From contig CAYHNG010000004.1 in assembly GCA_964357975.1 (NCBI GenBank), positions 6,380-70,379 of the forward strand: a DNA stretch of 64,000 bases, in the 5' to 3' direction. This document shows, in pieces, positions 47,819 to 59,789 of this stretch. The position numbers and the translations under genes were made by a program. Below the pieces are notes generated by a model, which was not told the DNA's origin, did no database searches, and saw only the letters and a list, made by a program, of their open reading frames with translations. The DNA comes from an uncultured Pseudomonadales bacterium (GTDB taxonomy: Bacteria; Patescibacteriota; Microgenomatia; UBA1400; MFAQ01). The stretch's first letter is position 1, and every line of letters begins with the position of its first letter.

Positions 47819-47927
47819 AGATTCATTATTACCAAACAATACCCAAATGTCAACTAATAAAATCCAAACCATCAACAGCTAGTTTATTGTTCCTCAGCTT
47901 CGGCTGGGGCATTTCTATGCCTGCGAT

Positions 47928-47956
47928 TTGACAACTCAGCCTCAATATGGTATTAT
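47928..47956 (+). promoter_or_regulatory. near-consensus sigma70 promoter TTGACA-N17-TATTAT driving the zinc-ribbon gene divergent from lexA
   Basis: TTGACA at 47928..47933 and TATTAT at 47951..47956. An AGGAGA RBS lies before the ATG at 48004. Confidence 0.45.
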
Positions 47957-48003
47957 ATAGGACGTACCTTCAATTCAAGCTGCATCCGATAGGAGATAAT
48001 CTT

Positions 48004-48342
48004 ATGAAAAAGTGCCCCAATTGTTCGTATTCGAACCCTGATGTCAAGTTCTGCGCCGAGTGTGGCACCGATCTTCGAACTGTTGAAGTCAAGAAAACCT
48101 GCTACATAGCCATGAAAAGTGAGGACGGTGTATATACAGTCCGTGGAGAGCGCTATCCCACCCGTGAGGCATTTGAGGATGCTCACCTTAACATGATGCA
48201 CAACCTTGATGGCATCTTCGTCATCCACGCCTTTGTGGATGATCTGGTTACCGGTCAACCATTTACTCCGATCGGTATAGACAAGATCGTCAACTTCGGC
48301 ACCTTCCGCCGCTACGATCCATTCCCAATCACGCTCTCCTGA
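48004..48342 (+). CDS. zinc-ribbon protein (CPNC...CAEC)
   Basis: MKKCPNCSYSNPDVKFCAECG is a Cys4 ribbon. The rest is unrecognised. Located between lexA and uvrB. Confidence 0.4.
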   Translation: MKKCPNCSYSNPDVKFCAECGTDLRTVEVKKTCYIAMKSEDGVYTVRGERYPTREAFEDAHLNMMHNLDGIFVIHAFVDDLVTGQPFTPIGIDKIVNFGTFRRYDPFPITLS

Positions 48343-48374
48343 AAGGGAGAGCTTTTTATGCGAAAATAGACCCA

Positions 48375-50425: not shown

Positions 50426-51067
50426 CTATTTTAGTTTCTTTCCTTTGAACACTGTTCCCCCTACTGCATCTTTAGACCGACTTGTGTCAATAACTCTTCC
50501 ATCTAGATCTGATAAATCATCTTGAACAATTCCATTCTCTTTAAGAAACCGTCTGATTATTCTTCTTGCCTCTTCCCCATACTGTCGACTTTCGTTCGTT
50601 CGGTTATCAAGCAGTATGTATATTATGGTTCCTTGACGGATAAATTTTTCCAACTGGCCAAGTAAATCATCCTCGACAATATTTCTAGGGTTTGGAGCGA
50701 TCATCATGATTAGATCTGCCTTAAACGAGGGAATGACTTCCACCTCACCAGGAACAAGTACTCTTTCTGCACCCATTTCGACTCGACGATCACCTCTTGC
50801 GACCTTCTGGTCAATAAAATATCCAAGTGCGACGTCCGCCCCAATCCACACATCGCCCGATCTTTGATCAACTGATAATCCTGGTGGTCTAAAACCTGGA
50901 CCCACATCCAGCACCCTGAATTTACTTCTTTCAATAATTTCCATAATTTGTGCCTTGCTCGCATCAAAAGTTTTTAGTCTAAAATCCAAAACTCTAGCAG
51001 AGAGCAGAGTGTCTGTTACTCTCTCTTTACCTAAATTGAATTCAGCAACAGCTGGGGATCCGATCAT
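50426..51067 (-). CDS. hypothetical protein, possible SAM-dependent methyltransferase fold
   Basis: FRVLDVGPGF resembles MTase motif I. Otherwise unrecognised. Confidence 0.3.
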   Translation of the reverse strand: MIGSPAVAEFNLGKERVTDTLLSARVLDFRLKTFDASKAQIMEIIERSKFRVLDVGPGFRPPGLSVDQRSGDVWIGADVALGYFIDQKVARGDRRVEMGAERVLVPGEVEVIPSFKADLIMMIAPNPRNIVEDDLLGQLEKFIRQGTIIYILLDNRTNESRQYGEEARRIIRRFLKENGIVQDDLSDLDGRVIDTSRSKDAVGGTVFKGKKLK

Positions 51068-51150
51068 ATCTTCAGATTATAGCGAATATAATAACCACAT
51101 GGACGAAACAAAATTAGTCAGCAATACATGGATCGAAAAAGGGGTGGCCA

Positions 51151-51650
51151 TGAAATTTACTTGGTACCCAGGAGAGAATCTGGAACAGTTTCAGCCATTT
51201 AATCAAGTTTATGGTGTCGTCTTTAATGCAGACGGTCAAATGCTCATTCAAAGAAGGGGGTTAAGACCTTGGTGCCTGGCCGGAGGGACCGTTGAAGTAG
51301 GGGAGACCGCCGAAGAAACTCTCAGGCGCGAACTAATTGAAGAAGCCGATGTTACCGTCAAGAATCCCATTTTGCTCGGCGGGCAAAGAGTGCAATTTCC
51401 CGGCGGGCATAATCCTAATCCCGGCAAACGTGGTGGTGGTGATGATTTCTATCAACTCCGCTATTACTGCGAAGTTGACGAGGTGTTACCTCAAACACCC
51501 GATCCTGATCACGACATCATTAACGATCGCCTCTTTGTTCCCCAAACAGAGATAAATAATTATCTTAACTGGGGCATTACCGGACAAGTTATCTTCGACC
51601 AAGCCATCGCCCTCTGGCTTTCACTTCATCCAGTGCCGCTTGGTGGATAA
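51151..51650 (+). CDS. Nudix hydrolase
   Basis: Nudix box region GGTVEVGETAEETLRRELIEEADV. ATG at 51151 has an AAAGGGG RBS. An alternative start is at 51099. Confidence 0.55.
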
Positions 51651-52176
51651 ACCCGTAGACCTTACCATAATCTCCCCAAGAGAACTTTCCACCCGGGTGT
51701 TCAAAGAAATTATCACTGGCTAATCCAAAATAATTTGCTACGAGCTGACGATATTCGGCTTCGTCCATCCTGACCACATCGGAAACGTCATCTCCCGAAA
51801 TCAATTCCTTCATTCCAAGCGGGAGGTAATAAACAAAAGCCGTATGAGAAAATTTTTCTTCTTTAAAAGCACCCTCAACATTTACCCGAATCAACGGGAC
51901 AAATTTCTCTGCCGGTTCCTTAATACCAAGTTCTTCTTCAGTTTCTCTGATAGCTGCAGAAAGGACATCTTCACCGTCGTTAATTCCGCCACCAATCATT
52001 CTCACAATCCCTTCCGGGTAAAATCCCTTCTTGTCTCCCAAGATAAATTTTCCGGAACCATCTTTTCCCAGAATCAAGACAGTTCTATCCCGATATCGTA
52101 AATTTTCAAAAGGTAAATGAGATAGTTCAACCTTACAATCAATTTCTTTAAACATAATCAAATTATAATATTTCAA
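51589..52176 (-). CDS. Nudix hydrolase
   Basis: GGGINDGEDVLSAAIRETEEELGI matches the Nudix box. 3' end overlaps the convergent Nudix gene. Confidence 0.55.
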   Translation of the reverse strand: MKYYNLIMFKEIDCKVELSHLPFENLRYRDRTVLILGKDGSGKFILGDKKGFYPEGIVRMIGGGINDGEDVLSAAIRETEEELGIKEPAEKFVPLIRVNVEGAFKEEKFSHTAFVYYLPLGMKELISGDDVSDVVRMDEAEYRQLVANYFGLASDNFFEHPGGKFSWGDYGKVYGFIHQAALDEVKARGRWLGRR

Positions 52177-52178
52177 AA

Positions 52179-52748
52179 CTATTTACCGACATCCAACAAT
52201 TTCGTTAATTTCTGATAGTCGGTAATTCCGTTCTCCAAAACTGCTTTATAAATATCCGTACTGGAAACTCGATTCTTGTCGTCTCCTTCCATTTCTCTTA
52301 TTTGCTTAAGTCTCAATATTGCCAGTTTACTTTCAGGCGTCAGACTTTTTGCGTATCGTAAATCTCTCTCTGTTTTATCCTGTGGATATTTATCGACAAA
52401 CCAAATTTCTGTCTCCCATTTCACTCCATTTATTTCCGAGATCAAAACCACAATGAAACCCTTGAGTCGGCCCATTCTTGGAAATTTCACAAAATCCCCA
52501 TACTGATATTTTTGAAACTGCCTCTCTTCAATCAGCATTTTCATGACATTTACGGAGGCATGTCTTGGATCGCCGGTTTCCACTACGATATCGATATCCG
52601 GGCCGTACATCAAATTCAGACTCAAACTACCTATGATCGAGCATTTTCCATATTTTGAAAGCAGGGGAATCAATCCGGAGTCAGCCAGTATCCTATTGGC
52701 AATATCTTTTTGGCTTTCAGAATAATTCAGCAATTCAGCGTCGTTCAT
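52179..52748 (-). CDS. Pol-beta-superfamily nucleotidyltransferase-like protein
   Basis: GSLSLNLMYGPDIDIVVET resembles the G[SG]-x9-13-D.D NTase motif. Confidence 0.4.
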   Translation of the reverse strand: MNDAELLNYSESQKDIANRILADSGLIPLLSKYGKCSIIGSLSLNLMYGPDIDIVVETGDPRHASVNVMKMLIEERQFQKYQYGDFVKFPRMGRLKGFIVVLISEINGVKWETEIWFVDKYPQDKTERDLRYAKSLTPESKLAILRLKQIREMEGDDKNRVSSTDIYKAVLENGITDYQKLTKLLDVGK

Positions 52749-52928
52749 TGTCTCATTTTACTCCAGTGCCAAGCCTACCGCGACCGAAGTAAAAGGGTCA
52801 AACTCGGTTACTTTCTCTTTTCCAGACATTTCAACGATCATTGATCCAAACCCGTCTGCATGATAAATTTGATCCTGACTAATATGCTTAGAAAGTCATC
52901 GTTCAGTGGTAAGACAGGGAACTTACAT

Positions 52929-53510
52929 TTAGATGTTACCGTAGCCCTTGTCACTTTTGAGTGCTCTGATGATTAGGTCCCGTATCAATTCAGATTTTGA
53001 TACACCCAACTCGTTTGATTTCCAGTCTAGGTACCCGTTTTCCAGGTTTTGAAGCACCAGGTTAAATCTTACTTTCTCAGAAAATTTTTTAGCCAGGGTG
53101 TTCTTTAAAATTTTGGCAACATCTTCCTTGGTATTGTAATAATTTACCGAAATTCGACTATCATCAACAAAATTAATCAACTTATTCTTCAAAATCTCCT
53201 TTGCGGACTCTTTGTAGAATATAAAAACAGGCTTGTTTTTTTGTAGAGCCAATGAAATCTGAAACCCAGTACTTAGGCCACCATTGGTCCCCTCAACAAC
53301 CACAATATCTGATCTAAGCAGATCTGAAGAGACAGATTTGTTGATCTTAGAGAAATCTAGAGTCGTCAGCCCCCTATATGCCTCTTTAGCCTCACCAATC
53401 CAGTCCCTTGTCAGGACGTTTCCAGTCTCAATAATGGCATCCTTTACAGCCATAATGTCTGGCATCCTAGCCTCAAAATTGTCTGTGGAGGTGGCAAAAA
53501 ATACTTTCAT
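52929..53510 (-). CDS. fusion of a nucleoside 2-deoxyribosyltransferase-like Rossmann domain with a C-terminal ribbon-helix-helix DNA-binding domain
   Basis: N-terminal MKVFFATS...DIVVVEGTNGGLSTGFQISLALQKNKPVFIFY (NDT-like). C-terminal RFNLVLQNLENGYLDWKSNELGVSKSELIRDLIIRAL has the RHH pattern (beta-strand + ..SRSELIREAI..). Confidence 0.45.
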   Translation of the reverse strand: MKVFFATSTDNFEARMPDIMAVKDAIIETGNVLTRDWIGEAKEAYRGLTTLDFSKINKSVSSDLLRSDIVVVEGTNGGLSTGFQISLALQKNKPVFIFYKESAKEILKNKLINFVDDSRISVNYYNTKEDVAKILKNTLAKKFSEKVRFNLVLQNLENGYLDWKSNELGVSKSELIRDLIIRALKSDKGYGNI

Positions 53511-53587
53511 CGTATTATAGAGTTGCTATTGACAAATTATAACATATAGGTTATCATGCACACGAATGCGCATATTAATTAAAGCTT

Positions 53588-54013
53588 ATGAAAATAACTA
53601 AAAGCTTTTCTTTTGCAATGGGTCATCGTTTACCCCTTCACTCGGGTAAATGTTCCAACTTTCATGGTCATAACTATGACGTGACTATTACTCTCGATTT
53701 TGAAACCGGCCAGAGCTTCATAGAAGGGGTCGGTTTTTTAATAGATTTTGGAGATATAAAAAAGTATGTTGACGAACGTTTTGATCATAAGTTCGTCATG
53801 CAGTCTTCAGATCCGTACTTGAAATCCATCGCACCGCTAGAGATACCCGGCTTGGTAGTGGTAGATTACGCCCCAACCGCCGAAAATTTGGCTACAGATA
53901 TTTCTCAAGGACTAAAACAATATATTTCAACACAAGGATTTAGTTCAAATCAGTTCAAGGTCATAGTCAAACTATGGGAAACCAGTAATTCATTTGTAAC
54001 TCAAATAGCCTAA
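53588..54013 (+). CDS. queD: 6-carboxy-5,6,7,8-tetrahydropterin synthase (QueD/PTPS family)
   Basis: FSFAMGHRLPLHSGKCSNFHGHNYDVTITL is the QueD Cys/His zinc motif. Confidence 0.8.
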   Translation: MKITKSFSFAMGHRLPLHSGKCSNFHGHNYDVTITLDFETGQSFIEGVGFLIDFGDIKKYVDERFDHKFVMQSSDPYLKSIAPLEIPGLVVVDYAPTAENLATDISQGLKQYISTQGFSSNQFKVIVKLWETSNSFVTQIA

Positions 54014-54015
54014 AA

Positions 54016-54825
54016 ATGAAAATTCTTAAGGCGAGCGATATAACCACAAAATACTCCCCGACAAAAGAAGATCTTTCCAATCTAATAAAAAAGGACAACA
54101 CCTTTAAACTCTCTGGTGATCGCATCTTTCACACAATTCAAGGGGAAGGGGCAACACTGGGTAAACCAGCAACTTTTGTCAGACTACACTTCTGTAACTT
54201 ATCATGTTCCTGGTGTGACACCTGGTATACCTGGCACCGGGATACCGAACAGTATTACAAAGAACCTTTTGATATGAGCGTCTCCGAACTTCACCGGGGG
54301 ATTAGAAATGCACAAGCCGCAAAAGGTGTCTCTGAAGAAAATCACGTCTATCGAGTGATTTTTACCGGGGGTGAACCAATGCTTCAGCAAAATGAAATTG
54401 CCCAATTCTTAATCGAGAACCCGGTATACATCTGCGAAATAGAAACCAATGGAACCATAGCCCCAAATGAATTTCTGCAGAAGCTTTGCAAAGAGGACAG
54501 AATACGGTTCAACTGTTCCCCTAAATTGGCGAATTCAGGAAATAATTCAAAAATTGCCTTTAACCAAAACGTTCTGAAAATACTGGCAAGTTTCCCAACA
54601 ACGATATTTAAATTTGTCTGTAATAAACCCAATGACATCGATGAAATTCTGGAAAAATTCAACTTTTTACCTAGAGGGCAAATTGTCATTATGCCAGAGG
54701 GGGTTACAAAAGAAGAAAATGCCGGCGCTTACGAAAGGATTATTAACAAAATAATCGAGCTCAGTTTAACTACTTACCCAAGATTACAAAATATCTGCTT
54801 TGACGGGTCAAAGCGGGGTGTTTAA
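54016..54825 (+). CDS. queE: 7-carboxy-7-deazaguanine synthase (radical SAM)
   Basis: IQGEGATLGKPATFVRLHFCNLSCSWCDTWYTW has the CxxxCxxC cluster motif in QueE context. Confidence 0.8.
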   Translation: MKILKASDITTKYSPTKEDLSNLIKKDNTFKLSGDRIFHTIQGEGATLGKPATFVRLHFCNLSCSWCDTWYTWHRDTEQYYKEPFDMSVSELHRGIRNAQAAKGVSEENHVYRVIFTGGEPMLQQNEIAQFLIENPVYICEIETNGTIAPNEFLQKLCKEDRIRFNCSPKLANSGNNSKIAFNQNVLKILASFPTTIFKFVCNKPNDIDEILEKFNFLPRGQIVIMPEGVTKEENAGAYERIINKIIELSLTTYPRLQNICFDGSKRGV

Positions 54826-54830
54826 AAACA

Positions 54831-55379
54831 ATGACACAATCAAAAATTGAAGATGCGTTTAAAAAGGTCGTCTCGGAATTAAATCCAAATTGGGAAAGTG
54901 ATCCCGATATGAGGGAAACGCCTCACCGACTTGGTCGCTTCTACATGCATTTTTTCCGCAATGAGGATCCAAATGCTCACATGGGGAAACGTTTTCCAAC
55001 AAAAAACAGGAATTTCGTTATTGTCAAAAACATTGAATGTTTCGGTATGTGTCCTCATCATCTAACTCCTGTAATTTACAAAATAAATATTGGTTACCTT
55101 CCCGAAAAATGGGCACTTGGTTTAAGTAAGCTTGCTCGTGTCGCAGTTGCCTGTGCCAGTAGTCCCAAATTGCAAGAAAATCTTACCTCCGATATTGTTG
55201 ATTGTGTCTACAAGCAATTAAAACCAAACGGTGTTATTGCAACAGTAGAAGGTGTTCATGGTTGTATGAGATGTCGCGGCGTTGAACAAGATACATCGGC
55301 CGTAACGGTTGATTACCGAGGTAAAAAAATGAATGATCTTAAGATAAAAAACGAGTTTTATACTTTACTAAAAATATAA
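54831..55379 (+). CDS. folE: GTP cyclohydrolase I
   Basis: FGMCPHHLTPVIYKINIGYLP compares with the FolE CEHHLVPF motif. 182 aa. Confidence 0.85.
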   Translation: MTQSKIEDAFKKVVSELNPNWESDPDMRETPHRLGRFYMHFFRNEDPNAHMGKRFPTKNRNFVIVKNIECFGMCPHHLTPVIYKINIGYLPEKWALGLSKLARVAVACASSPKLQENLTSDIVDCVYKQLKPNGVIATVEGVHGCMRCRGVEQDTSAVTVDYRGKKMNDLKIKNEFYTLLKI

Positions 55380-55864
55380 TGACTCCGATAATTCATAACT
55401 TTAGTTGGCAAGACATCTCCATCCTCTGTCAAAATATATCTAGAAAAATCGAGGCTGACAACTTTCAACCAGACATAATAGTTACTCCTCAAAGAGGAGG
55501 TTTTGTGCCAACGGCTATATTATCCCACCTATTAAGGTGCAGAGAGGTTATTGTCGTCGACATAAAAAGAACGTTGTCGGATGAAATTCATGCTGCCAAG
55601 ACCCCCCCGACCTTGACCAGTGATATCGACACGGAAAGACTTAAGGATAAAAAGATTCTTGTTATCGACGACATTATAGGGAGTGGAGAAACACTCCATT
55701 TTCTATTAAATATATTGGGAAAATGCAAGCCCAAAGCCATTAAGACCTCAATATTGGTCCAGAATGATGAGAATTTTGAAAAATCATTATTAAGAAACAA
55801 TTTGAAGCCTGATTACCTGGGCAAGAACGTTAGGGGTTGGGTAATATTTCCATGGGAGAAATAA
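55379..55864 (+). CDS. Gpt-like (xanthine/guanine-type) phosphoribosyltransferase, candidate 7-deazapurine-base PRTase
   Basis: PRPP loop KILVIDDIIGSGETL. N-terminal ISWQDI...IIVTPQRGGFVPTAILSHLL and C-terminal GWVIFPWEK parallel E. coli Gpt (VTWDML...IIAVSRGGLVPGALLAREL ... TWIEQPWDM). Start overlaps the folE stop. Confidence 0.65.
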   Translation: MTPIIHNFSWQDISILCQNISRKIEADNFQPDIIVTPQRGGFVPTAILSHLLRCREVIVVDIKRTLSDEIHAAKTPPTLTSDIDTERLKDKKILVIDDIIGSGETLHFLLNILGKCKPKAIKTSILVQNDENFEKSLLRNNLKPDYLGKNVRGWVIFPWEK

Positions 55865-56412
55865 ATCTAACCTACAAGACAAAGCCCTTTGTCTTGACCG
55901 GCGGACCGGGAGTCGGGAAGACTATGACGGCAATAGGGCTTGAACTAAAAGGATATTTTGTAATTCCTGAGGTGGCTGAATCATACATAAAGCTGCAACA
56001 ACATCTTGGAGATAAATATCCGTGGGAGGACAAGAATTTTGAAGCCATCGTCCTGAGGTATCAGCTTCAAAAAGAATCCGTATTGAAGGAATTAAGGAAT
56101 GTCGGTCCGGTTTTTATTGATCGCGGTAATTTAGATGCACTTGCATATTATCAATATTATGATCGACCCATCAGTCCTTTAATGAAACAAGTGATTGCTT
56201 GCCACGAAAAAACCAAAATCTATAACAAGATATTCTTGCTAGAACAACTAGGAGGTGAAAAGACTACAGAAATACGAAAAGAAAATAGTTTTGAGTCTAA
56301 GTCTCTCGAATTGCTACAGGAAAAAAACTACCGAGATTTTGGATATGAAGTTATCAGAATACCAGCCCTGCCGTTAGCGGAACGGGTTAAATTAGTTATT
56401 TCGAAAATATAA
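55852..56412 (+). CDS. P-loop nucleoside/nucleotide kinase-like protein
   Basis: Walker A LTGGPGVGKTM and DRGNLDALAY (DR-type motif of NMP/dN kinases). Overlaps the PRTase 3' end. Confidence 0.5.
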   Translation: MGEINLTYKTKPFVLTGGPGVGKTMTAIGLELKGYFVIPEVAESYIKLQQHLGDKYPWEDKNFEAIVLRYQLQKESVLKELRNVGPVFIDRGNLDALAYYQYYDRPISPLMKQVIACHEKTKIYNKIFLLEQLGGEKTTEIRKENSFESKSLELLQEKNYRDFGYEVIRIPALPLAERVKLVISKI

Positions 56413-56419
56413 ACATACA

Positions 56420-57712
56420 GTGAACAATTACAAAAAATTGATCTTTATTGGGGCTGGTCCAGCCTCGTTATTGGCGGGAAACATTCTTTGGAAAAACGGA
56501 TTCCATGATTTCTTAATATTGGAAAAAGGATTGGGTGTACATGAAAGAAATAAATATGACAAAAACGAAAATATCTGTTCCAGTATCAACGGAATTGGCG
56601 GTGCTGGTTTATTCTCGGACGGTAAGTTGAATTTCTCTCCTCAAATCGGCGGTCTACCGCTTAAGATCATGTCTAGTGACAGATATCAAAAATGGTCAGA
56701 AGAGCTAAAAAACCTAATTCCTGCGAAAATTGTCGAAACCGACTTTTCCGGTATTGAAAACTTCAATAAATCGAACAAAGACATAAATTTTTTAGCTATC
56801 GAACAGCGCCATGTCGGTACCGATTATTTACCTGCTATCGTAGATAGGTTAATCGATGGTTTCGAGAAAAATATCCTTACCGACGTAGACGTAACAGATG
56901 TGACAAAAAAAGATTTTGGCTTTGAAATAATTCTAGCTGACGGAAGAACTTTGGAATGTGAAGAACTAGTGGTAGCTACCGGACAAAGAGGTGCGGCTTT
57001 TGCTAAAAAATTGGCTGTAAAAATGGGTGTAAATGTCTCCTCTGTTGTCGCCGATATTGGTGTCCGTCTAGAAACAGAAAAAAATATGTTTAAGGCCTTA
57101 ATCGACTTACAATATGATCCAAAGATTTATTTTAAATTTGGAAATAAGCCTACGGTTAGAACATTCTGTACTAATCCCGGAGGAGACGTTATCGTAGAAA
57201 ATAAAGGAGATTACGTCACAATAAATGGCCATGCAAGTATTACGGATCAGACAGACTTTACAAATACCGCACTCATGTGTCGCATTGAAAATCTCGAAAA
57301 TCCAAAAGAATACACGGAAAAACTCTGTCGTCGCATTTCTAGTGTCACCGGAAACAAGATAGGAGTTCAGGATATTTCTGAACTAATTGACACTAAACCC
57401 TGCAGTTTCAAGATTCGCATACCCTATGTGAAAATGGATATCCGTGAATATTACGATTCCTTAGCATATGAACCAATAGTTGAAACTTTAAAAAAACTCA
57501 ATAAAATTTTGGATAAAAAACTAGAGGGATACATCTATTTCCCCGAAGTAAAACTCTATAACGATCACATAGATATCAAAAAGGATAGTTTAGAAGCTCA
57601 GGGAACAAAAGGACTTTACTTTTTAGGTGATTGTTGCGGTGTTATCCACGGACTTACAAACGCATGCTTAGCCGGTCAATCGTTTGCTCATACTTATTTG
57701 GAAAATATATGA
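56420..57712 (+). CDS. FAD-dependent oxidoreductase (COG2509-like)
   Basis: N-terminal dinucleotide fold LIFIGAGPASLLAGNIL. C-terminal GLYFLGDCCGVIHGLTNACLAGQ. Confidence 0.55.
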   Translation: MNNYKKLIFIGAGPASLLAGNILWKNGFHDFLILEKGLGVHERNKYDKNENICSSINGIGGAGLFSDGKLNFSPQIGGLPLKIMSSDRYQKWSEELKNLIPAKIVETDFSGIENFNKSNKDINFLAIEQRHVGTDYLPAIVDRLIDGFEKNILTDVDVTDVTKKDFGFEIILADGRTLECEELVVATGQRGAAFAKKLAVKMGVNVSSVVADIGVRLETEKNMFKALIDLQYDPKIYFKFGNKPTVRTFCTNPGGDVIVENKGDYVTINGHASITDQTDFTNTALMCRIENLENPKEYTEKLCRRISSVTGNKIGVQDISELIDTKPCSFKIRIPYVKMDIREYYDSLAYEPIVETLKKLNKILDKKLEGYIYFPEVKLYNDHIDIKKDSLEAQGTKGLYFLGDCCGVIHGLTNACLAGQSFAHTYLENI

Positions 57713-58533
57713 AAATCAACTCTGAAAAATCGGAAATGACTTTCAATTTAGAAAGATTGGCAGAAACTTCAAATTCTCTCGTACTTGTCACAGCCGCCAA
57801 TATGTTAATTGAGAATTCAGCTGTTACGATTCAGCCTTCAAAAGAAGTAACTGAAAAACTTCTTTCTCTTTTAGATGCACTCGAGGAAATGCCTGCAATA
57901 AACGCCTTTGCAATTGAAGGGGTCAGAGGTTCTGGTAAAACGACTCAGATCGGTCTTCTCGAAAACGGTGATTTTGCTGTCTCAGGAAGCCGGTTAATAA
58001 CTCCACTATATACAGATTTTATTCAGCCTCAGAAAAAAGACGTGTACATGACGATGTTTGGAGGAGAGGGAAGACCCACCGGAAGCATCATTGACTCACT
58101 AATAATCGCCGCTTTTCACGCTGATCGGTTAACAAGAGTTCAGGCTATCAGTTATAACAAGCCCTTATTGATTGATAGACATTGGCTTTCATTTTATGCC
58201 ATTGAGAGGGCTAAAATGATCCAATCCGGGTTAGATGCTGAAATAGCTGAAAACATTGTCGCCAAAATTGTAACGACTTGGAACCAGGTTAATCTTACCT
58301 TAGTACTTCATAATGTTCTCGTAGCTGTCGGTGAAAATAGAATCATACAACGTGGAGAGGCGGTTCGAAGTGAAAACGAAATACAGATTGAGACTCTAGT
58401 ATCAGAGACGATTGAACTCTTTTGTGGCGGAAAATCCCTCATACCCAAATTTAACAATACCACCAAATTTTTTGATGCCCAAAAATCTGCCGAGGTTTTG
58501 CACGAAGAAATTAAACAGTACTTTATAAAATGA
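57709..58533 (+). CDS. thymidylate-kinase-family (d)NMP kinase with N-terminal extension
   Basis: FAIEGVRGSGKTTQIGLL (Tmk P-loop IEG.DGSGKTTQ) and LLIDRHWLSFYAIE (Tmk DR..S..YQ motif). ATGA overlap with the preceding stop. Confidence 0.55.
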   Translation: MKINSEKSEMTFNLERLAETSNSLVLVTAANMLIENSAVTIQPSKEVTEKLLSLLDALEEMPAINAFAIEGVRGSGKTTQIGLLENGDFAVSGSRLITPLYTDFIQPQKKDVYMTMFGGEGRPTGSIIDSLIIAAFHADRLTRVQAISYNKPLLIDRHWLSFYAIERAKMIQSGLDAEIAENIVAKIVTTWNQVNLTLVLHNVLVAVGENRIIQRGEAVRSENEIQIETLVSETIELFCGGKSLIPKFNNTTKFFDAQKSAEVLHEEIKQYFIK

Positions 58534-59177
58534 AAAAAATAGAACTTGAAATTGACGAACTAAAAAAACGTTGGAACGAACGAGCATCAAGTTGGGATAA
58601 TGACTTAAAAGATCCGGAGCATTATTCAAATTTTGAACATTCTTATGAAAGAACCGATAGATTCACTTTAAAATATTTAAATCAGATATTTTCAATTAAT
58701 AAAGCAAATAATTCTCTCGATTTAGGATGTGGTACGGGAGAAAGTACTGTGAAACTAATACCTTATGCCCACAATATTTTTGGGGTAGATATCTCCGGAA
58801 ATATGATCCTAAATGCTATTTCAAAAAAATATCCCATCGAATTTACCTGTCAAAACGCAATGTCATTAAGCTTCCCAGATCAAATGTTTGATCTGGTAAT
58901 ATCTCGCGGCATCATGATCTCCCATGTACCTCTTGGGGGACAGGAAGATGTTGTTAGGGAAGTTGCCAGAATCACCCATAAGGGATCTGTAATCATCCTT
59001 GACTTTCTTCACGATATCGAAACAAAGAAGAAATATACAAAGTATTCTTCACCAAAAGCGCATTATAATGAAGAATCGATTATTTTACTTCTTAAGAGTG
59101 TGAATATAACGGGTAAATATTATTATGGTGGCACAAAAACCGAACGAGTAAATCGTATAGCAATTATTCGAGATTAA
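58530..59177 (+). CDS. class I SAM-dependent methyltransferase
   Basis: Motif I LDLGCGTGEST, and post-I LVISRGIMISHVP. Start overlaps the preceding stop. Confidence 0.65.
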   Translation: MKKIELEIDELKKRWNERASSWDNDLKDPEHYSNFEHSYERTDRFTLKYLNQIFSINKANNSLDLGCGTGESTVKLIPYAHNIFGVDISGNMILNAISKKYPIEFTCQNAMSLSFPDQMFDLVISRGIMISHVPLGGQEDVVREVARITHKGSVIILDFLHDIETKKKYTKYSSPKAHYNEESIILLLKSVNITGKYYYGGTKTERVNRIAIIRD

Positions 59178-59178
59178 A

Positions 59179-59736
59179 ATGAAACAAATTCACTTCGCTA
59201 CAACTAATGAATATAAAATCAAATTTGCTAACAATCTTTTAAGAACTCATGACTGGGAATGTGTACCAGGAAAAGTAAATTTAATTGAGCCGCAATCAAT
59301 GACACAAGAAGAAATATCCCAATACAAAGTGTTACAGGCATATGAGCAATTAAAAGTTCCTGTAATTACAATGGATTCAGGAATTTTTATTAGTGCTCTA
59401 AAAGGATTCCCAGGCATATACACTGCTGATTTTTTCAAATCTCTGAATAATGACCAGATTCTTCAGCTAATGGAAAAAGAATCTGACCGCAGCGCTTATA
59501 TCCAGCAAACATTATCGATAAATAACGGCGAGGAAATAAAATCTTTCACTAGTAAATCAGAAGGAGTCATTGTTCAATCTACGGAGGCAGGCGAAGGTTA
59601 CGCTTTCGACGCTTTTTTTAAACCAAATATTACAGGTAAGATAATGGCTAAGATGACAGAAGGTGAAAAGAGTTTAATCTGGGGTGAAGCGTGGAACAAA
59701 TTGGGTGATTTCCTAAACAGCTCATCATTACAATAG
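59179..59736 (+). CDS. Ham1/ITPase-family NTP pyrophosphatase (second paralog)
   Basis: IHFATTNEYKIKFA and VITMDSGIFISALKGFPGIYTADF match RdgB motifs. It starts 1 nt after the methyltransferase stop. Confidence 0.6.
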   Translation: MKQIHFATTNEYKIKFANNLLRTHDWECVPGKVNLIEPQSMTQEEISQYKVLQAYEQLKVPVITMDSGIFISALKGFPGIYTADFFKSLNNDQILQLMEKESDRSAYIQQTLSINNGEEIKSFTSKSEGVIVQSTEAGEGYAFDAFFKPNITGKIMAKMTEGEKSLIWGEAWNKLGDFLNSSSLQ

Positions 59737-59789
59737 TTTATTTAAACTCTTCGGGTATTTTAGGGTGATTTGGCGTATAATAAACAGTC

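Follow-up and report, generated by a model that had tools for sequence, protein, structure and literature searches.

The enzymes FolE, QueD and QueE convert guanosine triphosphate (GTP) to the free base 7-carboxy-7-deazaguanine (CDG), a chemistry that is established for these families. Described here is a nine-gene operon that carries these three genes together with a phosphoribosyltransferase (PRT) gene. It is found in a 64,000 nt stretch of DNA, termed the window (GenBank assembly GCA_964357975.1, contig CAYHNG010000004.1, positions 6,380 to 70,379, forward strand). The contig originates from the 0.1-µm fraction of groundwater, and the window UvrA groups in a 90%-identity cluster with proteins of Candidatus Collierbacteria (Microgenomates), members of the candidate phyla radiation (CPR). 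The operon and three divergently oriented genes make up an island that was probably acquired horizontally and that serves, with good confidence as far as its biosynthetic core is concerned, to make a 7-deazaguanine nucleotide.

Known systems and how the locus compares

Among the closest described systems is the tubercidin cluster (tubA-I) of Streptomyces tubercidicus (PMC6112128). It has in common with the window operon the clustered FolE, QueD and QueE genes, the lack of QueC and of a nucleic-acid transglycosylase, a dedicated PRT of the Gpt fold, a nearby Nudix gene and a kinase gene (TubH). TubE, the PRT of the tubercidin pathway, uses CDG and phosphoribosyl pyrophosphate (PRPP) and rejects 7-deazaguanine in vitro (PMC6112128). 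Full tub gene sets share a PRT clade with the window enzyme. On the other hand, the island does not have the UbiD, the GMP-reductase-like TubD, the MFS exporter or the LuxR regulator of tubercidin. It displays instead an AAA_28 kinase, a Tmk-like protein, a VP0956-type flavoprotein, a methyltransferase, a Ham1 protein and a DNPH1-like protein with a ribbon-helix-helix (RHH) tail, and its host is a CPR bacterium, not an actinomycete. Because of these gene differences the product would not be tubercidin; it probably keeps a guanine-type ring with a carboxyl group at C7.

The toyocamycin/sangivamycin cluster (toyA-M) of Streptomyces rimosus is similar in the PRPP-dependent attachment of the base (proposed for ToyH) and in tailoring at the nucleotide level, followed by dephosphorylation. 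The window operon lacks several enzymes that the toyocamycin cluster employs: QueC (which leads to preQ0), GMP reductase, adenylosuccinate synthetase and lyase, and a HAD phosphatase.

The DpdA systems (dpd islands and phages 9g, CAjan, phiST and CP220; PMC6884629, PMC10516641) also have the GTP-to-CDG genes on mobile DNA. In these the free base enters finished DNA by transglycosylation, whereas the window has no DpdA/Tgt match and carries a PRT and kinases instead. Prokaryotic viperins, which produce the antiviral 3′-deoxy-3′,4′-didehydro nucleoside triphosphates (ddhNTP), are alike in principle, as they combine a nucleotide analogue at the level of the nucleoside triphosphate (NTP) with a dedicated nucleoside monophosphate (NMP) kinase. 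Their chemistry differs, however, and no viperin is encoded in the island; a defence role here would be by analogy. In the synthesis of hydroxymethylcytosine (hmC) by phage T4 and of 2-aminoadenine (dZ) by phage S-2L (PurZ, MazZ and DatZ), a modification step at the NMP level goes together with a deoxynucleoside monophosphate (dNMP) kinase, and the pool is shaped by an NTP pyrophosphatase. Unlike these base-replacement systems, the island has no polymerase, no enzyme that destroys a canonical deoxynucleoside triphosphate and no reductase, and the host is cellular.

Cadeguomycin, the riboside of CDG, is a known antibiotic for which a 2025 review gives no gene cluster (PMC12648386). A 2026 preprint lists more than 100 uncharacterised 7-deazapurine cluster families and does not mention kinases, Ham1 or Patescibacteria; full-text literature searches turned up no prior description of a kinase/Ham1-containing 7-deazapurine cluster. 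An earlier reading of the locus, made from the letters and translated open reading frames alone (the sequence-only reading), had stated that no described system has such a composition. The particular composition is found on only one other contig, L160. Rather than standing without relatives, the system is best seen as a rare, new offshoot of the tubercidin/toyocamycin logic.

The nine-gene operon

The operon consists of nine plus-strand open reading frames at 53588-59736.

53588..54013, plus strand: QueD (6-carboxytetrahydropterin synthase); Pfam PTPS E 1.8e-24, NCBIfam QueD E 1.2e-21, CxxxHGH motif
54016..54825, plus strand: QueE-like radical SAM (S-adenosylmethionine) enzyme (7-carboxy-7-deazaguanine synthase); Pfam Radical_SAM E 5.7e-10, QGEG and CxxxCxxC motifs
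54831..55379, plus strand: FolE (GTP cyclohydrolase I); Pfam GTP_cyclohydroI E 4e-42, full length
55379..55864, plus strand: TubE-type (Gpt-fold) PRT; Pfam Pribosyltran E 6e-19
55852..56412, plus strand: AAA_28 (NadR ribosylnicotinamide-kinase-like) P-loop kinase; Pfam AAA_28 E 3.3e-23, over cut-off
56420..57712, plus strand: FAD-dependent oxidoreductase of the uncharacterised VP0956/COG2509 family; Pfam Pyr_redox_3 / FAD-depend_C
57709..58533, plus strand: Tmk-like P-loop protein of 274 aa; Tmk-type Walker A, invariant DRH, Arg-rich lid-like stretch
58530..59177, plus strand: class I SAM-dependent methyltransferase; Pfam Methyltransf_25 E 2.5e-16, Methyltransf_11 E 6e-16
59179..59736, plus strand: Ham1/RdgB-type non-canonical purine NTP pyrophosphatase; Pfam Ham1p_like E 6.5e-28, residues 4-167

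The junctions span -13 to +7 nt. QueD/QueE and QueE/FolE are separated by 2 and 5 nt, FolE and the PRT overlap by 1 nt (TAATG at 55379) and the PRT and AAA_28 genes by 13 nt (AAA_28 ATG at 55852). AAA_28 and the flavoprotein are 7 nt apart, ATGA overlaps join the flavoprotein to the Tmk-like gene (57709) and the latter to the methyltransferase gene (58530), and Ham1 follows after 1 nt. The nine genes are translationally coupled. The sequence-only reading had described nine same-strand genes with overlapping or adjacent stop and start codons, and all nine open reading frames, as well as the overlaps it names (55379, 55852, 57709 and 58530), were found where it had placed them. Its domain identities were borne out by Pfam and NCBIfam profile searches, the Tmk-like protein weakly so. 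The QueE-like protein has five QueE models as its five best NCBIfam matches (2.3e-27 to 6e-14), each under its cut-off.

The phosphoribosyltransferase clade

PRT loci were gathered from genomes, viral contigs and metagenomes with the PRT motifs as the sole criterion. A neighbour-joining tree was constructed from the genomes, the viral contigs and protein look-ups, with the metagenome loci left outside the tree. Three groups are found. The first is a bacterial clade of 48 members that includes the window PRT, and all 48 have QueE, QueD or FolE within 9 kb. The second comprises 40 archaeal and other Gpt homologues that have none of these genes nearby; several are near an archaeal tRNA-guanine transglycosylase. 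The third group is viral and separate from the window's clade, and most of its members adjoin QueE and FolE. The bacterial clade displays invariant H50, G101 and N129, where archaeal Gpt has D, D and K, invariant or nearly so, and it also shows conserved R55, D68 and K74. If the reading of the locus holds, the H50/G101/N129 signature would part deazapurine PRTs from housekeeping Gpt and be usable in genome mining.

Full tubercidin gene sets (FolE, QueD, QueE, PRT, UbiD, GMP reductase and Nudix/HD/HAD) are present within the bacterial clade, in one cyanobacterium, in several proteobacteria and in Candidatus Dasytiphilus, a symbiont of beetles. The window PRT is taken to be TubE-type because of this clade and its gene context, the TubE and ToyH sequences themselves being outside the comparison. 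Its predicted reaction, by analogy with the biochemistry of TubE, is CDG + PRPP to 7-carboxy-7-deaza-GMP. The residue signature is indirect evidence that it would use CDG or preQ0 and not guanine. With its QueE-linked clade, its signature and its tubercidin-type relatives, the enzyme is probably not an ordinary Gpt, in agreement with the specialised PRT envisaged in the sequence-only reading.

A different role for the PRT would be the supply of precursor. It would salvage guanine or xanthine in an organism that has no de novo purine synthesis, the kinases would raise GMP to GTP for FolE, and the product would be a free CDG-derived base that is released or is used by a transglycosylase encoded elsewhere. 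The Gpt fold and the nearest solved structures, archaeal GpT-2 4z1o (E 2e-17) and 1vdm, are those of 6-oxopurine PRTs. CPR bacteria are generally salvage-dependent, which would be in keeping with this role, and phage homologues are located in modules with Gat-QueC, where recycling of guanine displaced by DpdA is plausible. Against this, the D50, D101 and K129 that are invariant in Gpt are replaced by H, G and N in the bacterial clade, and R55 and K74 have been gained. In addition, the clade is never found without deazapurine genes and has tubercidin-type clusters, the pathway whose PRT accepts CDG and not 7-deazaguanine (PMC6112128). Ham1, the flavoprotein and the DNPH1-like protein would be left unexplained as well. 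We consider precursor supply quite unlikely, and the TubE-type reaction is preferred.

In Candidatus Dasytiphilus stammeri (L032, L036, L040, L042 and others; PRT at ~10001), the set QueE-FolE-QueD-GMP reductase-PRT-UbiD-HD nucleotidase has been kept complete in genomes of 0.44-0.6 Mb. This suggests that the symbiont makes a 7-deazapurine nucleoside for its beetle host.

Genes absent from the window

No match to QueC or UbiD was found in the window by tblastn with queries from sibling clusters (E > 0.2), and none to Tgt or QueA with Escherichia coli queries; the operon also has no Pfam match to QueC or UbiD. The bacterial PRT-linked loci likewise gave no Tgt-like match, E. coli Tgt being a weak probe for divergent DpdA. 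The absence of QueC and TGT noted in the sequence-only reading agrees with this search of the window, that of DpdA only within the reach of the E. coli Tgt query. Ten further large open reading frames of the window are housekeeping genes. No IMPDH/GMPR family protein is encoded among the nine operon genes and the three divergent genes.

These absences bear on a rival explanation, a plain queuosine or preQ0 locus with unrelated neighbours. FolE, QueD and QueE are indeed the first three enzymes of queuosine synthesis. However, QueF, QueC and Tgt, along with QueA and QueG, are all absent from the operon and from the window, the nine genes are translationally coupled, and the whole block is a low-GC insertion that is missing from close relatives. 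Moreover, unrelated lineages also carry the accessory genes alongside the PRT. A queuosine locus is contradicted by this conservation and is very improbable.

Recurrence of the operon genes

The metagenomic contig L160 carries FolE-QueD-QueE-PRT-AAA_28-flavoprotein-Tmk-like-Ham1, with QueC on the opposite strand. It shares eight of the nine operon genes (all except the methyltransferase gene), and the sole change of order is that FolE moves from third to first place. As eight of nine genes recur on an independent contig, the gene arrangement is not due to chance.

Parts of the set are found in other combinations. L161 has FolE-PRT-flavoprotein-QueC-Ham1-Dam-AAA_17. L162 has FolE-Nudix-MFS-flavoprotein-PRT-QueD-QueE-UbiD-UbiX, which is a tubercidin set in which the flavoprotein replaces GMP reductase. 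L163 resembles L162 in its core, with Ham1, a molybdenum hydroxylase and two YfbR-like 5'-deoxynucleotidases in addition. Clusters of type B (L001, L010, L012 and L164) display FolE-QueD-QueE-PRT-QueC-AAA_17 kinase-PLP (pyridoxal phosphate) decarboxylase-CDA-fold deaminase-Ham1; they have QueC, like toyocamycin, and other tailoring genes. Type C, the commonest arrangement (L002 10001-17519, L006, L013-L015, L018-L025, L171, L174, L186, L225, L231 and others), displays PRT-methyltransferase-Tmk-viperin/MoaA-like radical SAM-DegT sugar aminotransferase-DEDD 3'-5' exonuclease-QueD-QueE-FolE-CYTH. Actinomycetes, Ktedonobacteria, Clostridia, a metagenome-assembled genome of the CPR Torokbacteria and many soil contigs have this type. 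CYTH stands where Ham1 would be, and from the exonuclease and CYTH the type C product may be a nucleotide that is modified in its sugar and possibly terminates chains. No further type A clusters were found in JGI metagenomes, where matches are mostly type C and some type B.

Of the 78 non-viral QueE-linked loci, many of which are on short contigs, 43 have a P-loop kinase gene no more than 9 kb from the PRT, and a triphosphate-acting enzyme (Ham1 or CYTH) is frequent across PRT-linked loci. The recurrent P-loop kinases and Ham1/CYTH are the main support for a nucleotide that is carried beyond the monophosphate. The operon genes are not scattered in relatives: the PRT is repeatedly accompanied by the flavoprotein, AAA_28, the Tmk-like protein and Ham1.

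Two of the loci are found beside genes of the type seen in defence islands. L162 (1-6326), which is flanked by a transposase, has a NERD/UvrD-like helicase and an AAA ATPase. L002 (1-8081) has NB-ARC/TPR, SNF2 and nSTAND-type helicase genes.

Kinases, flavoprotein, methyltransferase and Ham1

A homologue of the AAA_28 kinase with 43% identity is present in the cyanobacterial tubercidin-type cluster L031, and another in L160. The 274-aa Tmk-like protein is less readily classified. It belongs to no Pfam family, and its own family has ~5 other members (6 hits) among 1.84 billion representative proteins. A profile of five members matches Aquifex Tmk 5xb5 (E 1.4e-4) over two short stretches, the P-loop and the C-terminus, and lid-like Arg211/215/220 are found beside the P-loop and DRH. 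In an hhalign comparison with a bona fide Tmk from a cluster, the P-loop alone aligns, at a probability of 47%. A fold search with its AlphaFold2 model was dropped (pLDDT 50, built from an alignment of two sequences). The protein is a probable nucleotide kinase. The earlier name of thymidylate-kinase-like kinase stands as regards P-loop, DRH and lid arginines, but the likeness to Tmk proper is weak. The two kinases of the operon are not housekeeping copies of Tmk or Adk, the Tmk-like family having so few relatives.

The AlphaFold2 model of the flavoprotein has a pLDDT of 93, and its top Foldseek match is 3nlc (VP0956; E 5e-23, TM 0.79). The fold was rejected as a guide to function, as 3nlc, the sole close neighbour, is itself uncharacterised and the remaining matches are generic two-domain flavoproteins; a literature search on COG2509 gave nothing useful for function. 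Close homologues adjoin the PRT in L160, L161, L162 and L163. Since some clusters with the flavoprotein also have QueC, others UbiD and others neither of the two, the enzyme probably acts away from the C7 substituent. No UbiD-type cluster has both the flavoprotein and GMP reductase (2 vs ~21 loci, 15 of them Dasytiphilus symbiont genomes).

The methyltransferase, which is absent from L160, appears to be an optional tailoring enzyme. Ham1 matches the NCBIfam XTP/dITP diphosphatase model PRK14821 (E 1.4e-37, residues 3-180), under the equivalog cut-off, and Ham1 genes stand beside the PRT in five further loci (L001, L012, L160, L161 and L163).

The island and its relatives

The operon is part of a larger block that differs from its surroundings.

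51614..59741, no strand: accessory island of ~8.1 kb; GC ~0.38 vs 0.44 in the flanks, break of collinearity in relatives
51589..52176, minus strand: Nudix hydrolase; Pfam NUDIX E 1e-9, not in the uvrB-uvrA interval of relatives
52179..52748, minus strand: 189-aa protein; minimal nucleotidyltransferase-type motif GS-x10-DID read from the translation, island-specific
52757..52832, plus strand: 76-nt remnant of the 3' end of an HSP70-family gene; 91% identity to L245 1047-1122
52929..53510, minus strand: 193-aa protein; N-terminal DNPH1/Rcl-like part and C-terminal RHH-like tail, divergent from the operon

Two stretches of the window, 41.5 kb to 51613 and 59742 to its end, have collinear matches in four related Collierbacteria assemblies, at 76-84% nucleotide identity. 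The points that match 51613 and 59742 are only ~550 bp apart in these relatives, between uvrB and uvrA. As the relatives are collinear on both sides and do not have the block, the 8.1-kb segment, with its nine-gene operon and three divergent genes, is a lineage-specific insertion. Horizontal acquisition is the most likely origin. No direct or inverted repeats of at least 9 nt were found at the junctions. A fifth relative (L245 1-9834, Collierbacteria GCA_001774675.1) has a wholly different 9-kb block upstream of uvrA, consisting of two methyltransferases, three Nudix genes, an NDK-like gene, glycosyltransferases, HAD, an HSP70-family gene and CYTH. By comparison with that block, the 76-nt remnant in the island is a rearrangement scar and the site upstream of uvrA is a recombination hot spot. 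Many nucleotide-handling genes are found in this variable region.

The three divergent genes may have accessory roles. The island Nudix is a candidate nucleotide phosphohydrolase with a possible TubG-like role. Its gene, which may or may not correspond to the terminal phosphohydrolase of tub/toy-type clusters, is within the island and outside the operon. The 189-aa protein has no significant Pfam or PDB match. The 193-aa protein matches DNPH1 (phmmer against PDB, E 0.003-0.009), but Gln replaces the catalytic Glu, with the wild-type sequence GVGYELG aligned to STGFQIS. Its 53 C-terminal amino acids match RHH_1 at E 0.003, under the Pfam cut-off. DNPH1/Rcl is a 2'-deoxynucleoside 5'-phosphate N-hydrolase, and the DNPH1-like/RHH protein is probably a nucleotide-sensing regulator.

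The proposed pathway

A pathway can be proposed from these genes. On strong family assignments FolE, QueD and QueE would convert GTP to CDG. The TubE-type PRT, as suggested by its clade, its context and the biochemistry of TubE, would condense CDG with PRPP to 7-carboxy-7-deazaguanosine 5'-monophosphate. Because neither QueC nor UbiD is present, the carboxyl group at C7 would be kept, unless the tailoring enzymes change it. To judge from domain families and recurrence, two further phosphorylations, to the diphosphate or the triphosphate, may be the work of the AAA_28 kinase and the Tmk-like protein. The flavoprotein and the methyltransferase may modify a part that all these nucleotides share, the ring or the sugar, and not the C7 substituent. 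Ham1 would return the NTP to the NMP, either as a last biosynthetic step or as a safeguard against entry of the analogue into the nucleic acids of the cell itself. The DNPH1-like/RHH, nucleotidyltransferase-like and Nudix proteins could be co-inserted accessories for control, dephosphorylation or self-protection. The PRPP-dependent, nucleotide-level 7-deazapurine pathway put forward in the sequence-only reading is thus supported by comparative genomics. The in-silico checks suggested with that reading all went its way, and none of the findings named there as refuting it turned up, the search for queC and tgt covering the 64-kb window.

The end use is most likely that of a toxic analogue, for competition or antiviral defence and with built-in self-protection, and not queuosine supply; this is the weakest part of the account. 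The lack of an exporter, the two kinases, the NTP pyrophosphatase and the putative nucleotide-sensing regulator favour an intracellular nucleotide over a secreted nucleoside. The account as a whole, with the toxic nucleoside or nucleotide analogue as its end point, is held with moderate confidence.

Several points weigh against the account. The roles of all island proteins are predicted ones, and every match of QueE, FolE, QueD and Ham1 is under the NCBIfam equivalog cut-off. The PRT tree is a neighbour-joining tree without support values, and the similarity by which the 274-aa protein is taken for a kinase is weak. The search for tgt, dpdA and queC spans 64 kb of the genome, and a DpdA of divergent sequence would escape the E. 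coli Tgt query. Sibling clusters do have QueC, a caveat to a QueC-free pathway. Kinases and an NTP pyrophosphatase together would constitute a futile cycle unless they act on different species. Insofar as a secreted antibiotic is proposed, the island has no exporter. With respect to defence, PADLOC gave no specific defence-system match for the operon proteins; generic matches were of the QueE radical-SAM core to pVip (E 4.5e-7), of the PRPP loop to PRTase models and of the methyltransferase to mad2.

If the account is correct, PRPP-dependent 7-deazapurine chemistry, so far known from a few antibiotics of Streptomyces, also occurs in the ultra-small CPR bacteria and there proceeds to di- and triphosphates. 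It would also provide candidate functions for the VP0956/COG2509 flavoproteins, the Tmk-like family and the DNPH1-like/RHH protein.

Related phosphoribosyltransferases in phages

The Gpt-type PRT adjoins QueE and FolE in ~40 of 68 IMG/VR contigs (viral loci L092-L159). Cultured phages with a related PRT are the Campylobacter Firehammerviruses (CP220 and relatives), Cellulophaga phages phiST, phi13:1 and phi19:2, and the Flavobacterium immuto phages. Further examples are two Brevundimonas phages, one Synechococcus phage and two uncultured 'Bacteriophage sp.' from human faeces, and one of two PRT queries also matches two unannotated fragments of Escherichia and Salmonella phages. The CP220 locus (L248) is at 156860-171249. 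In phiST (L247, 21224-35634), RNase H is followed by the PRT, then by a DNMK-like kinase (E 3e-5, under cut-off), one other gene and ribonucleotide reductase. The 55 C-terminal residues of the phiST PRT also find matches (E ~1e-3) in or next to FolE-annotated genes of Vibrio phages 033B, GH32, 1.207.B and others, which may represent a FolE-PRT fusion or a mis-annotated small open reading frame.

The CP220-like, phiST-like and immuto groups are exactly those in which all deoxyguanosine (dG) is reported to be replaced with dADG, dDG or fdPreQ1 (PMC10516641). This complete replacement has been ascribed to the DpdA3 family, for which experimental validation did not succeed (PMC10516641). Phages with partial replacement (9g, CAjan, iggy, phiSM and HVTV-1) are not among the PRT matches. 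A phosphoribosyltransferase is unmentioned in the accessible literature on these phages, although a mention in further reviews is possible. The presence of a PRT in all three complete-replacement groups could be explained by a nucleotide-pool logic, which is a lead and not a result.

A rival explanation for the island is pre-replicative modification in the window organism. The PRT and the kinases would make a 7-deaza-(d)GTP analogue that polymerases place into the cell's own DNA or RNA, with the host ribonucleotide reductase taking part if the deoxy form is needed, and with Ham1 and the DNPH1-like protein shaping or sensing the pool. Two kinases plus an NTP pyrophosphatase fit the hypermodification logic of T4 and S-2L. 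The fold of the regulator-like 193-aa protein binds 2'-deoxynucleoside 5'-phosphates, and YfbR-like 5'-deoxynucleotidases are found in sibling clusters. The related PRTs of phiST, CP220 and immuto in phages with complete dG replacement (PMC10516641), and the nearby kinase and ribonucleotide reductase genes of phiST, are also consistent with such a route. Nonetheless, a reductase, a dedicated polymerase and an enzyme that destroys dGTP are all missing from the island, and the viral PRTs form a clade apart from the window PRT. Ham1 would oppose the build-up of the NTP. In the view of the field, all known 7-deazaguanine DNA modifications are post-replicative and proceed via DpdA (PMC10516641). 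Nothing within the island supports it directly. Pre-replicative modification appears unlikely for the window, and the toxic-analogue account is retained.

We know of no described nucleotide-pool route to 7-deazaguanine in nucleic acids. If the account given for the island is correct, then, together with the phage data, it becomes testable whether some 7-deazaguanine DNA modification arises via the nucleotide pool and not by DpdA exchange.

Local signals and neighbouring sequences

A promoter-like site precedes the operon.

53529-53557, plus strand: promoter-like site TTGACA-17-TATCAT; sigma-70-like, 11/12, 31 nt upstream of queD

The site has the single best sigma-70-like score between 50.3 and 60 kb and is a consensus match only. 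No riboswitch or other RNA element was found upstream of the operon, and only two tRNAs of the window pass Rfam thresholds. A lexA gene is near the operon in the window, and in L002 lexA is directly upstream. Control of the operon by a LexA box of the Cheo type was rejected, as the one match in the window is at chance level and distant from the operon.

Two open reading frames are located on the uvrB side of the island.

50426-51067, minus strand: 213-aa open reading frame directly after uvrB, outside the unique interval
47947-48342: zinc-ribbon open reading frame of 131 aa, inside the 520-bp stretch 47855-48374

The 213-aa frame has no family, no structure match and no nucleotide alignment to relatives; the four collinear relatives carry an open reading frame of 111-156 aa in its place. 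The first Nudix gene of the region (51093-51650) is kept in the island-less relatives (83-84% nucleotide and ~90% protein identity), and because of this conservation it is considered ancestral and outside the island. In the four relatives lexA and uvrB are only ~70 bp apart and nothing corresponds to the 520-bp stretch, which is, on this comparison of sequences, a second small lineage-specific insertion.

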